8,442 nt of DNA, taken from IMG/VR virus record IMGVR_UViG_2531839666_000024, one strand, 5' to 3'. Position 1 is the stretch's first letter, and each line of letters opens with the position of its first letter. Source of the stretch: a virus (lineage: Duplodnaviria; Heunggongvirae; Uroviricota; Caudoviricetes). Both the position numbers and the translations under genes were made by a program. Below the pieces are notes generated by a model. The model was not told where the DNA came from, made no database searches, and saw only the letters and a list, made by a program, of their open reading frames with translations. Of the stretch, positions 1 through 8,442 are shown in pieces.

Positions 1-112
1 AACTGAAGTTGCCCTGAAAATGAAATTTTTTTGCACAACCGCAGAACTTTTCCGCAGGGCATCAGTCTTAATTAGTGCCACTGCTTTTCTTTGATGTCCC
101 CATTTTGTGGAG

Positions 113-155
113 CCCATCAACCCCGCCATTTCGGTTCAAGGTTGATGGGTTTTTT
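113..155 (+). terminator. Rho-independent terminator (10-bp perfect stem, 17-nt loop, T6 tract)
   Basis: cccatcaacc (113-122) is the exact reverse complement of ggttgatggg (140-149), followed directly by tttttt (150-155). The T tract is on the plus strand only, so it terminates rightward transcription entering from the left flank. Confidence 0.7.
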
Positions 156-235
156 GTTGCCTGAAATTTAAGCTGTTTAAAATCATGATGTTAGAAACAC
201 TGTTTTTTAACGATGGCGACAAAATGGCGGCAGCG

Positions 236-454
236 TCAAAGAGAGAGCGCCACCTGTCCTGATTTCATTGGATGCGGCTGAACCGGATTTGACTCTTTTG
301 GCGTTGCAATCGAACGAACAAAAGTTTCATGGGTAACAAAAGTATGGCTGCAGTTAATGTTCTGGCACTGGTTGTAACGCTCTTTGGTCAATGAAGATAC
401 CTGAAAACTGCTGCGAGTATGGGCGGCACTTCCACACAGTGGGCAAATCATCAT
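236..454 (-). CDS. ogr: Ogr/Delta-family zinc-finger late-gene transcription activator
   Basis: Small ORF immediately downstream of gene D, as in P2. It has a Cys-x2-Cys...Cys-x4-Cys motif (CPLCG...CQNINC) and the KERY(N/H)QCQN signature typical of Ogr. Start is ambiguous: ATG at 454 has the better SD spacing (GGGGAGAA upstream), ATG at 451 aligns with the P2 Ogr N-terminus, and the ORF track start at 487 is probably an over-extension. Confidence 0.85.
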   Translation of the reverse strand: MMICPLCGSAAHTRSSFQVSSLTKERYNQCQNINCSHTFVTHETFVRSIATPKESNPVQPHPMKSGQVALSL

Positions 455-491
455 TTTTCGAGTTCTCCCCATTTTTGCTAAATTCACAATA

Positions 492-544: not shown

Positions 545-1645
545 TCATTCCATTTCGAAATCATCAATCCTCACTTCAAGCTCCAGACTGGTTGTAAAAC
601 CGTTATCGGGGCTGACGGTATGCGTCAGAGTCGTAATGGTCCATTCCGCATCATCTATCGGCTGTTTAAAGCCACTGACTTTCACTGGCATTTCCGTGTA
701 GAGATCTGCCCGACCTTCTGCCAGTTGTAGCGAGAATGACGCAACGCCGCGTTGCAGGCGTTCCCACTGCATTTTCGCCGCCCGTTCGGCGTTGCTCCGG
801 TTGGCATAGGTGCGATTAAGTACCAGCACGTTTTCATCTGTACCCACCAGGTAATCGCCCTGCTTCGCTTCCGGCTCTTTCTTCTGCTTCTTAGTCCTGC
901 GCTTACGCTTCACCGTGGTGCTTTCATTCTTCGCGGGTTCGCGGGTATGCAACCAGCTGGCAATTACGCCCGTGTAGGCTCCGCGATCTGCCAGGGTAAA
1001 GCGGTGACTGTCGCCGTCCTTACGTGTGATAGTGATAACCGGTAGTGGTTTACCGCTGGCGCTTTTACCCTGTCCCTGCCGGATGAATAACAGATTGCCA
1101 TTTTTCACCGACGCAATAGCACCGTACTGGCGCGCCAGCCGCATCAGAAAACTGCCGTCACTCTCATTGGTCTGGTCTATATGTTCCACGGGTTTATCTG
1201 ACAGGTCTTTACCCAATGCCATCTTCAGTTTGTGCCGCACAGCTATTTCCTTCACCACTTCCCCAACGGTGGTCTTGTGCCACGACTTTTCACGGCGGGT
1301 ATTCAGCGTTTCACGAAAATCAGCACTTCGCGCCCGGATAGTCAGGCGGTCCGGTGCGCCAGTGTGTTCAATCTCGTCCACCGTGAATGCCCCTTTCGGG
1401 AAAAGCGGCTGCCCCTTCCAGCCCAGCGCCAGCGTAATAACCGCACCACGGCGCGGCAGCACGATTTTTCCGTCGGCGTCGTCCAGCTCCAGATCAAGCT
1501 GGTCCGCTTCAAAGCCCCGATTGTCCGTCAGCGTCAAACTCATCAGGCGGTTATCCAGCACAGTGGTGATATCCCTGCCCTCAATACTGATGCTGAATGC
1601 GGGAGTTTTGTTGCCTTTGTTAAGCAGTTCAGAGCTGAAATTCAT
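545..1645 (-). CDS. D: Tail protein gpD (late control gene D family)
   Basis: 366-aa ORF at the P2 gpD position (after U, before ogr). Its start overlaps the U stop in an ATGA junction. Size and N-terminal sequence are typical of the gpD family. Confidence 0.9.
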   Translation of the reverse strand: MNFSSELLNKGNKTPAFSISIEGRDITTVLDNRLMSLTLTDNRGFEADQLDLELDDADGKIVLPRRGAVITLALGWKGQPLFPKGAFTVDEIEHTGAPDRLTIRARSADFRETLNTRREKSWHKTTVGEVVKEIAVRHKLKMALGKDLSDKPVEHIDQTNESDGSFLMRLARQYGAIASVKNGNLLFIRQGQGKSASGKPLPVITITRKDGDSHRFTLADRGAYTGVIASWLHTREPAKNESTTVKRKRRTKKQKKEPEAKQGDYLVGTDENVLVLNRTYANRSNAERAAKMQWERLQRGVASFSLQLAEGRADLYTEMPVKVSGFKQPIDDAEWTITTLTHTVSPDNGFTTSLELEVRIDDFEME

Positions 1646-2127
1646 GACAGCAGCCCTCCCACCGTTTTACTGATATCGCTTAAGGCAGACGTTGCTGTGT
1701 CCTGCAGATTATTCAGTTGCGCACTGAGATCACCGAATATATCGGACAGGGATTCATCCACCCGTTTGAGCGACAGGGTGAACTCAATCCGGCGCGGCAT
1801 ACCGTCGCGGAAAAACTCCGTTTTAGTCTGATTCAGTCCCTCAATCACATACATGCCATAAATCGTGCCACTGCCTTCAATCAGGGGCCATGCTTTCCCC
1901 TGTTCTGCCATCTGCTCCAGTGCCAGCAACGACAGCCTGCCACCTGTTATCTCCGGCATAAGAACACCGGAAAGCGTCAGCATGTCGTTGTCCGGTCCCA
2001 GAAACTGCGTGGACGGACGTCGGTTTACCCGGCTGTTTGCCGCATGTCGCCAGCTGCGTTGATACTGCAGCTCCTGATACGGTACGGTGCGCAGCATAAA
2101 CACGTACAATCCCAGCACCATCATCAT
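1642..2127 (-). CDS. U: Tail protein gpU
   Basis: 161-aa ORF between T and D with ATGA overlaps on both sides. The MMMVLGL...VPYQELQ N-terminus is characteristic of P2 gpU. Confidence 0.85.
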   Translation of the reverse strand: MMMVLGLYVFMLRTVPYQELQYQRSWRHAANSRVNRRPSTQFLGPDNDMLTLSGVLMPEITGGRLSLLALEQMAEQGKAWPLIEGSGTIYGMYVIEGLNQTKTEFFRDGMPRRIEFTLSLKRVDESLSDIFGDLSAQLNNLQDTATSALSDISKTVGGLLS

Positions 2128-5100
2128 GCGTCGTATCCCCCCTGATCGCTGTAGTTACTCCTGGCTTTTGCCTTCAGCCTGCGTTCACGTTCATCAAGCT
2201 GGCGGGCCACCTCCCGCGCAATATCCTGCGCACTTTGTCCTGGCTGTGTCTGGATGATGATCTGCGTCGGTGCTTCAATCCGGTAAATGGGCGGCACAGT
2301 AGCTGCACGACTCACCATCGCTTCACCGCCTTTTGCGGGAAGCGCCAAAAGATGCAACGGTGGAAGCTCTGCTGGCGCGGCAGCAACACCCATCATTCCG
2401 GCGACAACGGCAGCCAGTGCAGCTGTATTTCTCCGGCTGGTCACGTTTGCCGGGCCGTTAACAATTTCCGGCCCGTTTTCACCGACGATGCCAAACTGCC
2501 CGCGCGGGATATAGCCGCCGCTGTCATACATCCCCGCAAAGCCATATCCCCATGACGGAAAATCACCCGATGGCATCATCACTTTACCGTCTGCATTCAC
2601 CGTCGCAGGTTGCTGACGCGTCACGCTTTCCGGCAGTTTCGCCTTTGCAGCCTCTTTACTGACAATGCCGAGTTTCTCCAGCAACCAGGAAACGCCGGAT
2701 TTCAGGGAGTCCAGCGGATGCATGACCATATTCAGCCCTTCTGCCAGTGCCTCCCCGAATCGTCGCCCCATTGCCGCTGCGCTCTGCAGTTCGGCAGAGG
2801 TCGACTTAACGGGCGTCAGCAGATCAGTAAACCAGCCCCACAGCGCCTGCACTTTGTCGCCAATCCACTGGAACACGGGCTTAAGCGGTTCGAACGCTGC
2901 ACTGATGGGACCTGCCGCCGCTTTGAATCCTTCCACCACGCCACCGAGAAATGCGGTGATGGGTTGCCAGTATTTCCAGACAACCAGCGCCACGCCCGCC
3001 AGTGCAGTAACCACAAGACCTATCGGACTGAGCAGAGCACCTAACAGACCAGATATGGCATACAGGGCAACGCGCAGCATCGCCAGTGGACCAGATGCCA
3101 GTACTCGCAGCACCGTGCCTGCGGCGGCCAGTCCACCGCGCAGTGCCGCCAGAGGATTCATAAACATCACAGCAACAGCACGTAAACCGGATAATCCAGA
3201 CCGCAAAAGTGCAACCGGCGCACCTGCTACAGTTTTCAGGACATTTCCCGTCAGTGATGCCGTGCGGCGCAAAGACGACAACGGCGCAGTAAGTAAACCT
3301 GCGGCGTTGCCCGATGAAGCAAGCCCGCGTCGCAGCAGTGCCAGTGGCGCGCCAGCCAGCCAGGACAACGCGCTGCTGGTTCGAGTTACTGCTGCCGTAA
3401 CGGAAGATAACGTTTTGATACCCAACACAGAGAATCCCAGACGGATCACTGCCAGCGGCCCCAGCACTGCAGCCAGCGCCACCGCTAAGGTGCCGAGGCC
3501 GACAGTAACCGCAGCCACAACAGCCGATGCTTTCATCAGTGTGCCTGTCAGTTCCGGGTTAGCTTCCACCCAGCGACGCAACGCCCCCGTGACGCTTTTC
3601 ACCGTGTACAGAATATCCATCAGCGGCTGGCGCAGCGTTTCGCCCAGGCTGCTGAAGGTGTTCTGCGCTCCGGTTTTGACCAGCAACCACTGCGCAGAAA
3701 GTGAATCCTTGTTAATGTCGGATTCTTTCTGCATGGAGCCGAGCGCATCATTGCCCGCTGTCAGTTTTAACTGACGCTGCAGTTCCGGCAGGTTGTTTGC
3801 CAGTTTCGCCGCGTCATCGCCAAACTCTTTACCAAACAACATAGTCATGGCAGACAGGCGCTTGTCCTGCGGCAGCGCGTTTACCTTCTCCAGCACGCGC
3901 TGGATGGTTCCCATCGCATCCTTCGTCATCTGCTTTTCAATCACTTCAGGATTGAGTTTCAGCAGATTCATCCCTTCAAAGAAACTCTTGCTTTGCATGG
4001 TGGCAATGGACAATTCACGCACCATCGCGTTTGCTGCACTGGCTGCAACCTCTGGCGCAGCGCCCAGTGTCAGGAAGGTGGAGCCCAGCGCCGCCGCTTT
4101 ACGATAATCCAGACGGTCAGCCACACCGCCCAGACGTTGCATCACATCAATGATGTCTGCCCCTTTCGACATGGCGTTATCATCCAGATAGTTCAGCGCA
4201 TCACCGAGCTGTTCAATATTGCGGGTGGGGATTTTGTAGAGCTGGGCGATTTTCCCCAGACTTTCTGACAGTTCATCCGCTGGCAGCTCAAAGGCTGTTG
4301 CCGCCTTTGCTGCCGTACTGGCGAAGGCCAGCAGGTCACGTTTCTGATCTTCCCAGCTGTCGTCAGGGTTTGCGACGTTCATGCGCGCACCACCTTCAAC
4401 CAGTGCAGCGAAGTCCACCGCACCGTTTTCCATCGGCAACTGTTCGCTGGCAGCCTTGATGGCATCCTGCATTTCATAAAAACGTGCAGTGCGGTTGCCA
4501 TTATCGTCACGCAGACCATTGACCTGCTTTGCCACACCTTTCATGGCATCTTCCATGCTGGTATAGCTTTTTACTGCCGCCATCACTGGCGCACCCATTG
4601 CCAGCCCTGCAGCCGTGGTGGTGGCTCCGGCACCTGCAATACGATCACGCACCTCCAGCGAACGGGCATAACTGGCACGCGCTGCATTCATCCTGCGCTG
4701 AGCTTCCCCCAGTCGCTTCAGCCGCGCCTCCTGTTTCGAAAGTTCCTGGTTATAACGTGATGTTTCACGGGCTAAACGGGCAGTTGCTCCCGCATCGTCT
4801 TTCGCAGAAATTCCCGCCCGGTACAGTTCAGCACGCACAAGCGCCGTCTGCTGCTGCAGCTTTTTCTGGCGTTCTTCCAGGCGCTGAACAGCCAGCCGTT
4901 GACGGCCCAGAGCAACAACCTGACGTTGCGAAGGCGGCCCCATCGCTCCCAGTTCCTGACTGAGCAAATTTGCACGCTGGCGGGCATAGTTCAGCCTGTC
5001 GCCTAATTTCTGATTTTCTGCCTGCAGCTTTCGGAAGCTGTCCAGACTGCTCCCGGCCTGATCAAGCTGCTTTATTGCATCGCGGGATTTTTTGACAGCA

Positions 5101-5201
5101 GCAGCCAGTTCTCTTGAACTGGCCTGTGCAGATCGAAATGGGCGGGTGAGCTTGTCAACCGCATTAAGAATGACCTGCAGACGCAGGTTGTTATCACTCA
5201 T
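2124..5201 (-). CDS. T: Tail tape measure protein gpT (1025 aa)
   Basis: Long ORF downstream of E/E' in the FETUD arrangement. It has an N-terminal coiled-coil-like region rich in Q/R/L/A, a central hydrophobic block and Ala/Leu-rich tandem repeats. Its ATG at 5199-5201 overlaps the E' stop codon. Confidence 0.9.
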   Translation of the reverse strand: MSDNNLRLQVILNAVDKLTRPFRSAQASSRELAAAVKKSRDAIKQLDQAGSSLDSFRKLQAENQKLGDRLNYARQRANLLSQELGAMGPPSQRQVVALGRQRLAVQRLEERQKKLQQQTALVRAELYRAGISAKDDAGATARLARETSRYNQELSKQEARLKRLGEAQRRMNAARASYARSLEVRDRIAGAGATTTAAGLAMGAPVMAAVKSYTSMEDAMKGVAKQVNGLRDDNGNRTARFYEMQDAIKAASEQLPMENGAVDFAALVEGGARMNVANPDDSWEDQKRDLLAFASTAAKAATAFELPADELSESLGKIAQLYKIPTRNIEQLGDALNYLDDNAMSKGADIIDVMQRLGGVADRLDYRKAAALGSTFLTLGAAPEVAASAANAMVRELSIATMQSKSFFEGMNLLKLNPEVIEKQMTKDAMGTIQRVLEKVNALPQDKRLSAMTMLFGKEFGDDAAKLANNLPELQRQLKLTAGNDALGSMQKESDINKDSLSAQWLLVKTGAQNTFSSLGETLRQPLMDILYTVKSVTGALRRWVEANPELTGTLMKASAVVAAVTVGLGTLAVALAAVLGPLAVIRLGFSVLGIKTLSSVTAAVTRTSSALSWLAGAPLALLRRGLASSGNAAGLLTAPLSSLRRTASLTGNVLKTVAGAPVALLRSGLSGLRAVAVMFMNPLAALRGGLAAAGTVLRVLASGPLAMLRVALYAISGLLGALLSPIGLVVTALAGVALVVWKYWQPITAFLGGVVEGFKAAAGPISAAFEPLKPVFQWIGDKVQALWGWFTDLLTPVKSTSAELQSAAAMGRRFGEALAEGLNMVMHPLDSLKSGVSWLLEKLGIVSKEAAKAKLPESVTRQQPATVNADGKVMMPSGDFPSWGYGFAGMYDSGGYIPRGQFGIVGENGPEIVNGPANVTSRRNTAALAAVVAGMMGVAAAPAELPPLHLLALPAKGGEAMVSRAATVPPIYRIEAPTQIIIQTQPGQSAQDIAREVARQLDERERRLKAKARSNYSDQGGYDA
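3027..3356 (-). repeat. Five tandem degenerate ~22-aa (~66-bp) coding repeats inside the tape measure (motif xPLxxLRxxLxxxG)
   Basis: Consecutive protein segments AGAPLALLRRGLASSGNAAGLL / TAPLSSLRRTASLTGNVLKTV / AGAPVALLRSGLSGLRAVAVMFM / NPLAALRGGLAAAGTVLRVLAS / GPLAMLRVALYAISGLLGALLS. Coordinates were mapped from the codons by hand and are approximate. Confidence 0.5.
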
Positions 5202-5630
5202 CGTTGGCCCCGCTTCTCTGAATCGCTTTATACCGCCATTCCAGCACTTCGGTCAGCGGCATAACGTCAGTAACGGATGGCGGCCAGTGAAAAATGGTGG
5301 CGATATCTGCCACCAGATCGTCAACCGTCAGGCTGTCGGTAAACCGGCAAGCACCGACTTCTTCAACAAAAAAGTGACAACCTCAACCGACATGGCAGTG
5401 AGATCTGCCGGGTCCATCTCTGCAATTTCCTGTGCAGTCAGTGCCGGACTGGAGATGCGGGGGATCACGGTCATCATCGCGTTTACATCCATATCCATAA
5501 TGGCCTGCAGGCGTGTACCGCGCAGCGCACCGGACTGCGGTTTACGCAGCACAATTTCGGTGATTTCTGTTTTACCGCGCTTGATGGGGGTATCCAGTTG
5601 AATGGTCTTTTCAGTCTGCTTATCGCTCAT
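5194..5630 (-). CDS. E+E': Tail assembly chaperone gpE+E' (-1 frameshift fusion, ~145 aa)
   Basis: After a -1 slip at T_TTT_TTG, the -1 frame stays open for 57 codons (VEEVGACRFTDSLTVDDLVADIATIFHWPPSVTDVMPLTEVLEWRYKAIQRSGANDE). It ends at a TGA (5194-5196) that overlaps the T start (minus-strand AACGATGAGTGA). Translated by hand from the sequence. Confidence 0.75.
5328..5630 (-). CDS. E: Tail assembly chaperone gpE (zero-frame product, 100 aa)
   Basis: ORF between FII and T at the P2 gene E position. The slippery heptamer lies 13 codons before its stop. Confidence 0.85.
   Translation of the reverse strand: MSDKQTEKTIQLDTPIKRGKTEITEIVLRKPQSGALRGTRLQAIMDMDVNAMMTVIPRISSPALTAQEIAEMDPADLTAMSVEVVTFLLKKSVLAGLPTA
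5367..5373 (-). other. Programmed -1 ribosomal frameshift slippery heptamer T_TTT_TTG
   Basis: Minus-strand GTC ACT TTT TTG TTG AAG; zero-frame codons ACT-TTT-TTG. This is the same heptamer and relative position as the P2 E/E' recoding site, analogous to lambda G/GT. Confidence 0.8.
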
Positions 5631-5655
5631 TTTGCTGTCCTGTCAATTGGGTTCT

Positions 5656-5673
5656 GGCGCGGTATCCCGCGCC
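5656..5673 (-). other. GC-rich hairpin in the FII-E intergenic spacer (7-bp stem GGCGCGG/CCGCGCC, 4-nt loop), no U tract
   Basis: Perfect inverted repeat ggcgcgg (5656-5662) and ccgcgcc (5667-5673), 12 nt downstream of the FII stop and about 25 nt upstream of the E start. Confidence 0.35.
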
Positions 5674-5684
5674 GTTCAGATATA

Positions 5685-6200
5685 TCAGAGGCCGAGGGCG
5701 TTGCGGTGCGCTTCCATCAGGTCCACACCGTCCACAATTTCCACCATGTTGATAAGGTCCACTTCATAGAGCACCTCACCATTGATGGTCAGCTTCGCGT
5801 AGCTGTTGGTACTGGTCACTTTGGTGGTGTTGCTTTCGCCCGTCTTCCACTCGCCGGAATCCACTTCTTTGTGACGTCCACGCACGACAAGCTCCACGGC
5901 CTGCACTTCCCCGGTATCGTCACGCTGAATAGAGCCGGTAAAGCGCAGCTGGATGCCATCCACCGTGGCTTTACCCATCTGTTTAAACAGCAGCAATTCA
6001 GTACCACCAATGGAAAATTCTGTGTCCAGCGCACTGTCATCAAGCCCCAGGTCCACATCCACCGCACCCGGCATTCCGCCGCCGCGATACTTCTCATATT
6101 TGCGGGTAAATTTCGGCAGCGTCAGCGACTCAACGATCCCCTGCCAGTTGTTCCCGTCGTTAAACAGGTTCAGGTGTTTTAATTTGCGTGGTAAAGCCAT
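5685..6200 (-). CDS. FII: Major tail tube protein gpFII
   Basis: 171-aa ORF 9 bp downstream of the sheath gene. The MALPRKLK(H/Y)LNLFNDG N-terminus and the size match P2 FII. Confidence 0.9.
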   Translation of the reverse strand: MALPRKLKHLNLFNDGNNWQGIVESLTLPKFTRKYEKYRGGGMPGAVDVDLGLDDSALDTEFSIGGTELLLFKQMGKATVDGIQLRFTGSIQRDDTGEVQAVELVVRGRHKEVDSGEWKTGESNTTKVTSTNSYAKLTINGEVLYEVDLINMVEIVDGVDLMEAHRNALGL

Positions 6201-6209
6201 GTTGTCCCC

Positions 6210-7382
6210 TTACGCGCTGACCTGGCTGGCGAAATTCACCAGGTACTGATCGGTGATGCGCTGACGCAGCATCAGGTTTTCAAGTGGCGGCACTGGCGTG
6301 TAGTCGTAGTCGATGGTGAGTTTTCCGGCTTTCAGCGTGTCTTTGTCGTTCACCGACTCATCCAGCCAGCAATCACCACCAATGAGATAGCCCTGACTGA
6401 CCAGGCTGCGCATTTTGGCGCGGATACCTTCGATAATGTCGCGGGCCAGCGACGGGTTAAGCGGTTTATCCACCGCCCACATGTGTGCTTCTGCCATCGT
6501 GTCCATCAGCACCTGCGCCGTGCGGGTGTAGTTTTCGAAGGCAAAGAGCGGGTCATCACTCAGGCAGCGGGAACCCCAGAAGCGGAAACCGTCTTTACGC
6601 ACAAGCGTGGTGACGTCGTTCTGGTTCAGCAGACCTGCATCGGTTGCCGGGTCCTGCAGATCCCAGAACACATCTGCAGAAATTCCGGTGACACCGTTCA
6701 CGCCCACGTTGGACAGGCTTTTGTGCCATCCGGTCTGCTCGTCAATTTTGGCGCGCAGACCAAGCGCACGGGCGGTGGCATATGCCGTTGCTTCGGCATT
6801 CAGCACCGTGTCCCAGCCAGTAAAGTCAGGCCAGATCAGCATCCCTTCGCGCTGGCTGAAGTTTTCGCGGTAAGTGATCGCCTCCTGCACTGTCTTGCAG
6901 CCATACGCTGACAGGTAAGCAAATCCACGCAGGCTTTGCGCCACGCTTAGCAACTCAGTAGCTACCGCCTTGGTGTCGTGGCCTGGCACGCCGAGAATGC
7001 GCGGTTTAACGCCGAGCTGTGACTGGGCAGATAACAGGGCTTTCATACCTGTTTTTTTACCTTCAGCAGTCACTGCGCCGATGATATTGGTCGTGGTTTC
7101 GTCTTCCGTTTCACCCTGCGGCACACGCACAACAATGGTCACGGGTTTTGCCTGGTCAGCGATGGCATCCAGCGAACGGGCCAGAGTACCTGACTCACCC
7201 GCTTTACCGCTGGCAGTCAGCACATCAGTGATCAGCACGGGTTTATTAAGAGGAAACATTTTTGCATCGGCATCATCGCCCGTGCAGACCATACCCACGA
7301 TGGCGGTGCTCACCGTGGTAATAGATCGGGTGCCTTCGTTGACTTCAACAACGCGCACCCCGTGGTGGTAATCCTGAGCCAT
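6210..7382 (-). CDS. FI: Contractile tail sheath protein gpFI
   Basis: 390-aa ORF that is first in the operon, with a strong SD (AGGAGG, 9-nt spacer). The ...DYHHGV...INEGTR...[10 protein letters not shown]... N-terminus is typical of the P2 sheath. Confidence 0.92.
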
Positions 7383-7457: not shown

Positions 7458-7477
7458 TTGTGTCGTTATTCACACAA
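7458..7477 (-). promoter_or_regulatory. Ogr-type late promoter activator box (TGT-N12-ACA dyad) upstream of FI, putative PF
   Basis: ttgtgtcgttattcacacaa carries TGT (7459-7461), a 12-nt spacer and ACA (7474-7476) with extended 6-bp arms TTGTGT/ACACAA. It is centred about 85 nt upstream of the FI ATG. This is the P2/186 late-promoter element bound by Ogr/Delta. Confidence 0.6.
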
Positions 7478-7524: not shown

Positions 7525-8091
7525 TCAGGGGGATTCATTGCTCTTATTTGCCGGAAATTTTCTATAAATGGTAGAAACGCCTACATCAAAAATCAGTGCA
7601 ATACGCTGTCTTGATTCTCCGGCCTCGAGTAAACGCCCAATCTGTGCCCACTGTTCGGTGGTCAACTTAGGACGGCGTCCACCTACTCTGCCTTTGGCAC
7701 GAGCTGCAGCCAGCCCTGCCATGGTACGTTCAACTATCAGTTCGCGTTCCATTTCAGCCAGGGCCCCCATGACATGAAAAAAGAAACGGCCCATTGGGGT
7801 GCTGGTATCAATACTGTCAGTCAGGCTTCGGAAATTCACGCCACGCTGACGCAACTCTTCTATCAGCGTAACAAGATGCCGCATACTGCGCCCCAACCTG
7901 TCCAGCTTCCAGACAACCAGAGTGTCTCCTGCCGATAGTGTCCTGAGCAGTTTTTTAAGCCCCGGTCTGTCGGACTTAGTGCCACTGATTTTATCCTCAA
8001 AAATCCGCTCACATCCCGCGCAGTTCAGTGCATTACGTTGCAAATCGGTGTTCTGGTCATTTGTTGACACGCGTACATAGCCAATAAGCAT
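7525..8091 (-). CDS. Serine DNA invertase, Hin/Gin/Cin/Pin family
   Basis: The N-terminus MLIGYVRVSTNDQ contains the catalytic Ser. RPGL...GD.L.V.KLDRLGR and the C-terminal HTH (GVSTIYR) are family hallmarks. The start was chosen at the internal ATG (8089-8091) with SD AGGGGA and a 6-nt spacer; the ORF track extension to 8136 lacks an RBS and runs into the recombination site. Confidence 0.9.
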   Translation of the reverse strand: MLIGYVRVSTNDQNTDLQRNALNCAGCERIFEDKISGTKSDRPGLKKLLRTLSAGDTLVVWKLDRLGRSMRHLVTLIEELRQRGVNFRSLTDSIDTSTPMGRFFFHVMGALAEMERELIVERTMAGLAAARAKGRVGGRRPKLTTEQWAQIGRLLEAGESRQRIALIFDVGVSTIYRKFPANKSNESP

Positions 8092-8102
8092 GATCAATCC
8101 CC

Positions 8103-8128
8103 TGAATAAAAACCGTGGATGATGCCAG
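8103..8128. other. Candidate 26-bp invertase crossover site (gix/hix/pix-like) at the edge of an invertible segment
   Basis: tgaataaaaacc-gt-ggatgatgccag. The outer half matches the remembered hix/gix half-site consensus TTATCAAAAACC at 9 of 12 positions and the central CC-NN-GG is present, but the inner half is weak. It lies between the invertase start and the opening of the fiber reading frame. Confidence 0.4.
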
Positions 8129-8442
8129 TTAGCCATTATCTCTGCATTTTCATAAACGTTGGTTTGGGAGAAGGTTCGGCATTACCCGTTGGTGTGCCTG
8201 TTCCGTGGCCTTCCGCCACTCCGCCAACAGGCTGGCTGAAATGCAACGGTGCGGCTTTTTCTGCTGAAGAATACCCGGAACTGGCAAAGGCTTACCCGAC
8301 CAATAAATTGCCTGATTTACGCGGTGAATTTATTCGTGGCTGGGATGACGGTCGCGGGATTGATACTGGTCGCGCTTTGCTTAATAGGCAGCCACACACA
8401 ATTTTGGACCATGCACACTATATGGAATTATGGACAGGGGAC
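8110..8442 (+). CDS. Tail fiber C-terminal variable cassette, partial; probably the promoterless alternative copy in the silent orientation
   Basis: The frame opens immediately after a TAA at 8107-8109 and stays open to the window end. It encodes ...PVGVPVPWPSATPPTGWLKCNGAAFSAEEYPELAKAYPTNKLPDLRGEFIRGWDDGRGIDTGRALL..., a phage tail-collar/fiber-tip type motif. There is no convincing RBS before the in-frame ATGs at 8119/8122, and it is opposite in strand to the tail operon. Confidence 0.65.

Follow-up and report, generated by a model that had tools for sequence, protein, structure and literature searches.

In bacteriophage P2, a -1 frameshift at the sequence TTTTTTG gives rise to a 91-aa protein E and a 142-aa fusion protein E+E', an arrangement that is conserved in P2-like phages according to two papers (PMC3091744, PMC3931495), which also cite an earlier report (Christie et al. 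2002, J Bacteriol 184:6522) that the fusion is made by -1 frameshifting and is needed for tail assembly. The database record of P2 annotates a "-1 translational frameshift", and in the records of P2, PSP3 and KL3 the E' part is annotated as a slippage join. A comparable layout is found in phage lambda (Levin et al. 1993; Xu et al. 2004, 2013, 2014, as summarised in PMC5009743), where a -1 frameshift links two overlapping ORFs that are placed between the genes for the major tail protein and the tape measure, giving G and GT. Outside the phages, a general description of the dnaX type of -1 frameshift signal is available (PMC3711429). For the P2 family it is established that the E to E+E' ratio is fixed by the frameshift, and that both chaperones are needed for a contractile tail of the correct length.

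The DNA studied here, hereafter called the window, is a stretch of 8,442 nucleotides from the viral record IMGVR_UViG_2531839666_000024. An earlier inspection of the letters alone (the sequence-only reading) had proposed that it carries a P2-type -1 frameshift producing E and E+E'. We confirm that the observation is correct, and we find its interpretation as the E/E+E' frameshift site of an E. coli P2-like prophage supported. The slippery heptamer, the matches to PF10109 and PF06528, the conservation of both frames and the likeness to P2 all support it, and we assign a probability of about 93% to the reading that the locus is the tail-assembly-chaperone pair E/E+E', expressed by a -1 frameshift, of a P2-like (Peduoviridae, Elveevirus/Felsduovirus-type) E. 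coli prophage.

Results

Gene E, whose zero-frame product is a 100-aa tail assembly chaperone, occupies 5630..5328 on the minus strand, as do the other elements of the locus. It begins with an ATG at 5630, preceded by a ribosome-binding site (AGGA, 7 nt upstream), and its C-terminus reads ...VVTFLLKKSVLAGLPTA before the TGA stop at 5330..5328. The protein matches PF10109 (Phage_TAC_7; E=1e-18; 67.5 bits, cut-off 25) as well as phrog_103, annotated "tail" (E=4e-44). There were no NCBIfam models for E, E' or the fusion, and a PDB sequence search with the fusion and a 16-sequence profile gave no meaningful match. This Phage_TAC_7 homologue is placed between the tail tube gene FII (5685..6200; PF04985, E=9e-60), directly upstream, and gene T (2124..5201; PF10145), which encodes the 1025-aa tape measure protein. 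The gene order around the locus is FI-FII-E-E'-T-U-D, and the adjoining tail genes are all intact.

The slippery heptamer T_TTT_TTG is located at 5373..5367, near the 3' end of E, where the zero-frame codons are ACT TTT TTG and the X_XXY_YYZ register can be read directly from the sequence. It is followed by twelve sense codons, with the stop of E as codon 13; its position and register are as the sequence-only reading had given them. The heptamer lies inside an 18-codon overlap of the zero and -1 frames, from the last -1-frame stop upstream of the slip site (TGA, 5385..5383) to the E stop, which is the only stretch where a shift could be productive. In-frame X_XXY_YYZ heptamers are rare (6 in 2491 codons), while a -1 frame that stays open for 57 codons is found at 9.9% of codons in the window's genes and in 7.4% of shuffles; together with the short overlap, these rates imply that the geometry alone would arise by chance in well under 1% of cases.

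A first scan of IMG/VR returned near-identical loci only, and the diversity was taken from GenBank phages and species-level genomes instead. The species-level set numbers 80 loci, including one truncated contig without TTTTTTG, and 79 of them carry TTTTTT[GA]. Among 55 distinct sequences from the 79 bacterial species loci, the T6 run is 100% conserved, whereas conservation at other third positions averages 0.69, and the heptamer keeps a strictly conserved register with respect to the E frame. The 44 distinct close variants comprise 43 with TTTTTTG and one with TTTTTTA (L042), and both frames are open in every one of them, L042 included. At more diverse phage loci T_TTT_TTG is still in frame in 13 of 19, and five of the 19 have other heptamers at the same place (T_TTT_TTC, T_TTT_TTT, G_GGA_AAG, C_CCT_TTC and A_AAT_TTT); the Ralstonia locus L090 also carries TTTTTTG.

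Translation of the -1 frame from the heptamer gives E' (5194..5367), with 57 sense codons (5367..5197) and a TGA stop at 5196..5194, the length of open frame that had been claimed. Base G5367 is read twice, and from it E' reads VEEVGACRF...RSGANDE. The composite E+E', join(5630..5367, 5367..5194), is predicted to have 145 aa; its predicted mass is 16.1 kDa and that of E is 10.9 kDa, in line with the approximate values of 16 and 11 kDa suggested beforehand. In a tblastn search, the fused protein found 425 phage records, in 388 of which the match takes in at least 80% of the fused query.

We regard homology as the decisive evidence for the predicted frameshift, namely the PF06528 match of E' together with a heptamer that is conserved in P2 and its relatives. 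E' matches the PF06528 model (Phage_P2_GpE) over its full length (1-37/37, E=2.9e-18) and also matches phrog_1756 and phrog_6416. The residues directly after the slip site (VxEVG) are conserved, and the core of the domain is ADIAxIFHWPP. Upstream of the heptamer 41 of 53 substitutions fall on the third codon position of E; after it they favour the third position of E', both in the overlap (4 of 5) and in the part that belongs to E' only (14 of 25). Purifying selection acts in the E' frame.

The last codons of E' contain the start codon of T (ATG, 5201..5199), within ATGAGTGA, and E' overlaps T by 8 nt, its stop following 2 nt after the ATG. The sequence-only reading had correctly seen that E' ends inside the start of the tape measure gene (stop TGA 5196..5194, 8 nt into T), but it mistook the TGA that overlaps the ATG for the stop of E'; this overlapping TGA (5200..5198) is in another frame, and E' uses the next TGA in ATGAGTGA. 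An E'/T junction of the form ATGAGTGA or ATGAGTAA occurs in 70 of the 80 species loci and also in P2. The layout of the locus, the identity of its domains and the extent of its conservation are shown directly by these data.

A Shine-Dalgarno-like element, GAGGUU (5379..5384), is a candidate frameshift stimulator 5-7 nt upstream of the heptamer; relatives have RAGGUGG. The energy of the duplex with the anti-Shine-Dalgarno sequence is strongest at -13..-4, with a mean of -7.3 against -1.2 kcal/mol overall in 32 representatives, and is -6.8 in the window. The codon at -11..-9 ends in G in 24 of 27 cases, compared with 61 of 177 elsewhere in the same genes. Under synonymous randomisation the element scores z=-7.5 (0/2000), with absolute z values of at most 1.8 at control positions. 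The RAGGUG element is conserved beyond amino-acid constraint, and it is probably an upstream frameshift stimulator. Its spacing falls at the short edge of the 6-17 nt window used for upstream Shine-Dalgarno-like elements in an E. coli reporter survey (PMC4066793). Heterogeneous ZZN codons, UUG among them, were less efficient in shifting than UUY in this survey, and U_UUU_UUG is absent from the 21 high-efficiency motifs that were selected (PMC4066793), so that the efficiency of the shift may be low unless a stimulator is present.

Folding of 5366..5270, of 5400..5300 and, in 7 phages, of the 39 nt that follow the heptamer revealed no significant or conserved hairpin or pseudoknot of appreciable stability 5-9 nt downstream of it (z from -1.5 to +0.4). 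The predicted folds are non-homologous, and RNAalifold on 11 sequences gave a consensus of only -2.0 kcal/mol for the region downstream of the heptamer. A downstream stimulatory structure at canonical spacing is ruled out on these grounds, and this agrees with a report that P2-like phages are without one (PMC3091744). Rfam has no family over the frameshift site, its sole match in the window being RybB at 80..158. As a separate observation, a short hairpin, GUCGGU..ACCGAC, located 8 nt past the heptamer, has a single compensatory change among Klebsiella relatives; P2, ENT90, phiCTX and Burkholderia lack this hairpin.

Further downstream, inside E', a terminator scan picked out the hairpin UGGUGGC-AGAUAUC-GCCACCA (5315..5295), which is followed directly by UUUUU (5294..5290). 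The mean minimum free energy of this segment (5315..5290) is -12.2, as opposed to -8.6+-0.4 after synonymous randomisation (z=-8.8), and eight control segments gave z values from -2.1 to +1.9. In the alignment of the hairpin 87% of cells are paired, and 38 cells are changed on both sides of a pair, compared with 15.3+-4.1 in shuffles (0/500). The two codons after the stem have T at the third position in 34 of 59 cases, against a background of 98 of 403. The hairpin and its U-tract are conserved and covarying beyond amino-acid constraint, and they look like a terminator, which is the function that they may have. In the searchable literature we found no discussion of this hairpin, or of the Shine-Dalgarno-like element, for P2.

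The host phage is a member of an Elveevirus/Felsduovirus-like group; it carries a tail-fibre invertase, and its integration site is rybB. Of 5426 complete E. coli genomes, 999 contain the E/E' locus, and the sequence is 100% identical in many RefSeq E. coli prophages. Escherichia phage Cartapus and Klebsiella phage 4LV2017 (Elveevirus) have 96-100% DNA identity with 5100..5700, and the same is true of Escherichia phage 500465-1, Klebsiella phage KP12 and RefSeq E. coli prophages. All of these encode E and E' proteins identical to those of the window, with no biological difference, but their records give E' as a separate 39-aa CDS and not as a slippage join.

Discussion

The frameshift competes with a different gene model, in which E' would be made on its own as a 39-aa protein starting at GTG 5313 (5194..5313), with no frameshift. 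Exactly this ORF is annotated as "GpE family phage tail protein" by PGAP and in many phage records, in RefSeq as in GenBank, and the equivalent codon is GTG or ATG in most relatives, which speaks for a genuine start; it is, however, TGG in Vibrio MAR, ATC in Acidovorax, ATT in Mannheimia and GTT in Klebsiella ST16phi5.4. Nor is there Shine-Dalgarno complementarity before GTG 5313 (about -0.5 to -1.7 kcal/mol in windows +40..+52), and the E' of P2 has likewise been reported to be without a ribosome-binding site (PMC3931495). Between the upstream stop at 5385..5383 and GTG 5313 the E' frame contains no ATG, GTG or TTG. The E' frame is itself conserved and shows position-3-biased substitution from the heptamer on, 18 codons upstream of GTG 5313, and the phrog_1756 alignment covers E' residues 3-57. 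We consider independent translation extremely unlikely, and the stand-alone protein is most likely an artefact of slippage that was left unmodelled. The warning that a naive annotation would miss E' is thus justified with respect to the slippage join, which is modelled in none of these annotations, and mistaken with respect to the E' domain, which PGAP and many phage records do annotate as a separate 39-aa ORF. The practical value of the analysis lies in annotation, the true gene model being join(5630..5367, 5367..5194) on the minus strand.

Two other explanations take the heptamer in a different sense. RNA polymerase might add one U within the U6 run, so that a fraction of the mRNAs would encode the fusion in a single frame. 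The slip site is indeed a homopolymeric T6 run, extended to T7 in Stenotrophomonas and Xanthomonas relatives (PMC3931495). The resulting protein would be nearly indistinguishable from the ribosomal one (...TFFVEE... as against ...TFLVEE...). However, efficient slippage by bacterial RNA polymerase usually needs runs of about 8-9 or more, and T6 is shorter than this. Polymerase slippage would also not need the register of the heptamer in the E frame, which is strictly conserved, and the non-homopolymeric X_XXY_YYZ heptamers of several relatives (G_GGA_AAG, C_CCT_TTC, A_AAT_TTT) fit tandem tRNA slippage and not polymerase stuttering. As the event in P2 is moreover treated as a translational frameshift in the literature (PMC3091744, PMC3931495), we think a transcriptional origin very improbable. 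That heptamer and open frame are a product of chance, or a relic in a decaying prophage with no second product, is scarcely credible. Even though chance alone leaves a -1 frame open for 57 codons at some 7-10% of positions, the E' frame gives the PF06528 match at E=2.9e-18, none of the 44 close variants has lost either frame, the heptamer is kept in 79 species-level loci, the E' frame is under purifying selection and the neighbouring tail genes are intact; the conservation data have effectively refuted this explanation already.

For the ribosomal frameshift that we favour, we infer how the tRNAs move, in what ratio the products are made and what the chaperones do as follows. Most ribosomes would translate E as far as its stop (5330..5328), releasing the 100-aa chaperone. 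In a minority of them, the P-site tRNA-Phe (on UUU) and the A-site tRNA-Leu (on UUG) would slip back by one nucleotide at U_UUU_UUG (5373..5367), and such tandem slippage predicts the junction peptide ...SVEVVTFLVEEVGACR. The shifted ribosomes would read 57 more codons in the -1 frame, up to the UGA at 5196..5194, and E+E' is thus the predicted 145-aa product of the window's own locus. By analogy with P2 and with lambda G/GT, the shared E part would coat the tape measure protein and the E' domain would recruit the tail tube subunit, the frequency of frameshifting setting the proportion of E to E+E'.

As the prophage is present in about one fifth of complete E. coli genomes, the finding is an ordinary one, though correct; the P2-type E/E+E' frameshift is an already known feature, established for the family, so that the finding as such adds nothing new. 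The two additional RNA signals, if functional, would add a further regulatory layer to a textbook recoding site. It is conceivable, though we rate it as doubtful, that the RAGGUG element boosts the weak U_UUU_UUG while the hairpin and U-tract serve as a leaky terminator or as an mRNA stabiliser, coupling T to E+E'. If this were true, the hairpin and U-tract would separate the abundant products of FI, FII and E from the rare ones of T, U and D. Only frameshifted ribosomes translate through the hairpin, so that frameshifting could double as an anti-attenuation switch, which would couple the expression of the tape measure protein to the synthesis of E+E'.

Comparison with known systems

The closest relative among described systems is P2, which has the gene order FI-FII-E-E'-T-U-D-ogr with its FETUD tail operon, the identical T_TTT_TTG in the same register, the PF10109 and PF06528 domains, and a 57-codon E' that ends in ATGAGTRA with an 8-nt overlap with the start of T. 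The two nevertheless differ in several respects: the fused proteins are only 49% identical, E has 91 aa in P2 and 100 aa here, and from the slip site to the E stop there are 6 codons in P2 compared with 12 here. The Elveevirus/Felsduovirus-like host phage, with its tail-fibre invertase and its integration at rybB, is another difference, and in P2 the hairpin within E' adopts another register.

The description of the locus as lambda G/GT-like holds for the arrangement and the mechanism, but it does not extend to sequence homology. None to lambda gpG/gpT was detected in sequence searches, which gave PF10109 (Phage_TAC_7) and PF06528 (Phage_P2_GpE) as the only Pfam matches and no PDB relative. 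The lambda heptamer is G_GGA_AAG, and the lambda tail is non-contractile.

With dnaX of E. coli the locus shares a -1 shift on an X_XXY_YYZ heptamer that has a Shine-Dalgarno-like element upstream. The spacing of this element is 10 nt in dnaX and about 5-7 nt here, dnaX has a downstream hairpin whereas there is none at 5-9 nt here, and the shifted product, which is shorter than the zero-frame product in dnaX, is the longer of the two in this prophage.

The E/E' recoding site

The E gene (5630..5328, minus strand) was read from the sequence as a 100-aa ORF whose last 15 codons and stop are ACT TTT TTG TTG AAG AAG TCG GTG CTT GCC GGT TTA CCG ACA GCC TGA. The phasing of the E codons (ACT TTT TTG) places the slippery heptamer T_TTT_TTG in the X_XXY_YYZ register at 5373..5367 (minus strand), with 12 sense codons between it and the E stop. 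Translated in the -1 frame from G5367, the extension E' (VEEVGACRFTDSLTVDDLVADIATIFHWPPSVTDVMPLTEVLEWRYKAIQRSGANDE) is open for 57 codons up to a TGA at 5196..5194 (minus strand). The sequence-only reading had proposed both the heptamer and the open frame, and had a TGA overlapping the ATG of the tape measure gene T (1025-aa ORF, ATG at 5201..5199, minus strand) as the end of E'. E' does end inside T, the two ATG and TGA positions giving an overlap of 8 nt (ATGAGTGA), but the TGA that closes its frame is the second one, 2 nt past the ATG. The predicted masses of 10.9 kDa for E and 16.1 kDa for the 145-aa fusion E+E' agree with the anticipated values of ~11 and ~16 kDa. Because the -1 frame is closed upstream by a TGA at 5385..5383 (minus strand), 5 codons before the slip site, a productive shift is confined to 18 codons, within which the heptamer is the sole slippery motif.

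After 9.9% of codons in the window's eight genes the -1 frame stays open for 57 codons or more, and 7.4% of shuffles of the 171-nt stretch contain no stop; heptamers of the X_XXY_YYZ type occur in frame 6 times in 2491 codons. The combination of open frame and heptamer is thus improbable by itself, yet not decisive. It is homology that is decisive for E/E' exceeding chance: the -1 extension matches PF06528 (Phage_P2_GpE; Pfam, E=2.9e-18) over the full model, E matches PF10109 (Phage_TAC_7; Pfam, E=1e-18), described there as 'tail assembly chaperone proteins, E, or 41 or 14', and the PHROG tail families 103, 1756 and 6416 are in agreement, with phrog_1756 aligned to E' residues 3-57. We regard the -1 frameshift observation as confirmed and its reading as a P2-type E/E+E' pair as supported.

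Conservation and alternative models of E' expression

The 145-aa fused protein matched 425 phage records in a tblastn search, with at least 80% of the query covered in 388; the matches listed are each in two pieces, as two reading frames would give. Among 19 diverse loci, T_TTT_TTG is in frame in 13 (including P2, PSP3, ENT90, phiCTX, Burkholderia KL3 and Acidovorax), five have a different slippery heptamer in the corresponding position (T_TTT_TTC, T_TTT_TTT, G_GGA_AAG, C_CCT_TTC and A_AAT_TTT), and the remaining one, from Ralstonia, also has TTTTTTG. At species level, TTTTTT[G/A] is at the expected position in 79 of 80 genome loci, the exception being a truncated contig. The six T's do not vary among 55 distinct sequences, 95% of which have G at Z; other third-codon positions have a mean major-base frequency of 0.69. 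Both frames are open in all 44 distinct close variants (TTTTTTG in 43, TTTTTTA in 1). Among these, 41 of the 53 variable sites before the heptamer fall at the E third position; past it, the E' third position accounts for 4 of 5 in the overlap and 14 of 25 where E' alone is encoded, a switch which indicates that selection tracks the shifted frame from the heptamer on.

RefSeq (PGAP) and many GenBank phage records model this region differently, with a stand-alone 39-aa 'GpE family phage tail protein' that begins with the internal GTG 5313 (5194..5313, minus strand; 6388..6507 in locus L100). This is argued against by the lack of anti-SD complementarity before that GTG, by the equivalent codon being TGG, ATC, ATT or GTT in four relatives, and by the 18 preceding E' codons, whose protein sequence is conserved (VxEVG...) and which show the substitution pattern of coding sequence in the E' frame. 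The use of this ORF instead of a ribosomal-slippage join looks like systematic mis-modelling. Transcriptional slippage on the T6 run, another conceivable source of the fusion, is disfavoured since relatives have non-homopolymeric heptamers and the register is conserved.

Elements around the slip site

No significant or conserved structure was found at the canonical 5-9 nt past the heptamer, consistent with the reported absence of a downstream stimulatory structure in P2-like phages (PMC3091744). Before the heptamer there is a sharp maximum of complementarity to the 16S 3' end, at -13..-4 relative to it (mean -7.3 vs -1.2 kcal/mol overall), where the window has an SD-like GAGGUU (5384..5379, minus strand; anti-SD duplex -6.8 kcal/mol) and relatives have RAGGUGG. 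Synonymous codon choice keeps the element in place across 32 representatives. The Glu/Lys codon at -11..-9 is G-ending in 24 of 27 representatives vs 61/177 at other places in these genes (Fisher p=7.5e-8), the codon after it is GTG in 18/24 vs 83/173, and the observed -7.58 compares with -4.35+-0.43 after synonymous randomisation (0/2000; |z|<=1.8 at four control positions), p-values that ignore shared ancestry, with the control positions on the same tree. Given this codon-ending bias and the randomisation result, amino-acid conservation does not account for the element. As E. coli reporter assays show UUG in the A site to promote shifting less strongly than UUY, GAGGUU is a plausible upstream frameshift stimulator; its spacing of 5-7 nt before the heptamer falls at the lower limit of the 6-17 nt range used in that study (PMC4066793).

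Inside E', a terminator scan identified a terminator-like hairpin (UGGUGGC/GCCACCA, 5315..5295, minus strand) followed by UUUUU (to 5290), overlying the codons for LVADIATI. Over a 39-nt segment in 31 representatives, the mean energy is -12.2 kcal/mol vs -8.6+-0.4 for synonymous randomisation (z=-8.8), while eight control segments of the same genes range from z -2.1 to +1.9. In 50 distinct sequences the stem pairs in 87% of cells; both sides are changed in 38 cells vs 15.3+-4.1 in shuffles (0/500), for example GUG..GCC to GUA..GCU, at two synonymous third positions. The covariation score of the stem is 0.331 (slid controls at most 0.223), and the two codons past it have T in third position in 34/59 cases vs 98/403 in the background. 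The hairpin starts 13 nt past the E stop, and its end is 94 nt upstream of T; at 52 nt past the heptamer it is too distant for a classical frameshift stimulator. Speculatively, it is a possible leaky terminator or mRNA stabiliser between abundant and rare tail products, and might be melted by frameshifted ribosomes only.

Genomic setting

By Pfam matches, the minus strand of the window carries a P2 late tail operon in P2 gene order: FI sheath (7382..6210), FII tube (6200..5685), E/E', T, U (2127..1642), D (1645..545) and ogr (487..236). FII and E are separated by 54 nt, within which lies a GC-rich inverted repeat, GGCGCGGgataCCGCGCC (5657..5674, minus strand), without a U-tract; in a Mannheimia relative a terminator is annotated at this position. 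Three codons before the T stop there is an in-frame G_GGG_GGA (2136..2142, minus strand) whose -1 frame is the U frame, which in formal terms would permit a T-U fusion. The corresponding sequence is G_GGG_GGG in SEN8 but A_GGG_GGG in Klebsiella ST512phi13.6, and these are probably simply conserved Gly-Gly codons. A TGT-N12-ACA dyad, TGTGTCGTTATTCACACA (7459..7476), which we take to be the Ogr-dependent P2 late-promoter motif, lies between the invertase gene and FI, ~85 nt before the FI start; such dyads are not enriched across the window (3 found vs 2.3 expected).

The invertase, a serine recombinase (Resolvase + HTH_7; 7525..8136, minus strand; flank 8137..8442), is situated between tail-fibre genes and FI, and in a matching E. 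coli genome is flanked by tail-fibre and fibre-assembly genes in opposite orientations, which suggests an invertible host-range segment. At the other end, a full-length RybB sRNA gene (80..158, plus strand; Rfam RF00110, 105 bits) is present, and as the match to prophage-free E. coli chromosomes stops at ~158-170, the P2-like prophage abuts the rybB 3' end, beside ybjL, with ogr as its last gene.

Over 601 bases around the E/E' site, identity is 99.8% to Escherichia phage 500465-1, 99.7% to Klebsiella phage KP12, ~96-97% to the Elveevirus phages Cartapus and 4LV2017, and ~86% to Felsduovirus phages such as SopEPhi and SEN8. Of 5426 complete E. coli genomes, 999 have the E/E' stretch, some of them with 100% identity. 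As a recoding site it was known before, and the prophage that carries it is very common; only the SD-like element and the E' hairpin might repay experiment.

Comparison with P2 and lambda

In P2, Christie et al. reportedly found in 2002 a frameshift efficiency of roughly 10% and that E' is essential. The P2 record annotates a 91-aa E and a two-piece join for E+E' with a 'site of -1 translational frameshift', where the sequence is GGT TTT TTG TCG ... TGA. Heptamer and register are identical to those of the window and E' likewise has 57 codons, ending with AAT GAG TAA inside ATGAGTAA at the T start; P2 differs in having its hairpin in another register and in lacking the invertible host-range segment suggested for the window's phage. 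The TTTTTTG site of P2 yields the 91-aa E and a 142-aa E+E', E' has no ribosome-binding site, and the arrangement is conserved in P2-like phages and parallel to lambda (PMC3091744; PMC3931495), where G and GT are produced by a frameshift mechanism at a 30:1 ratio (PMC5009743).
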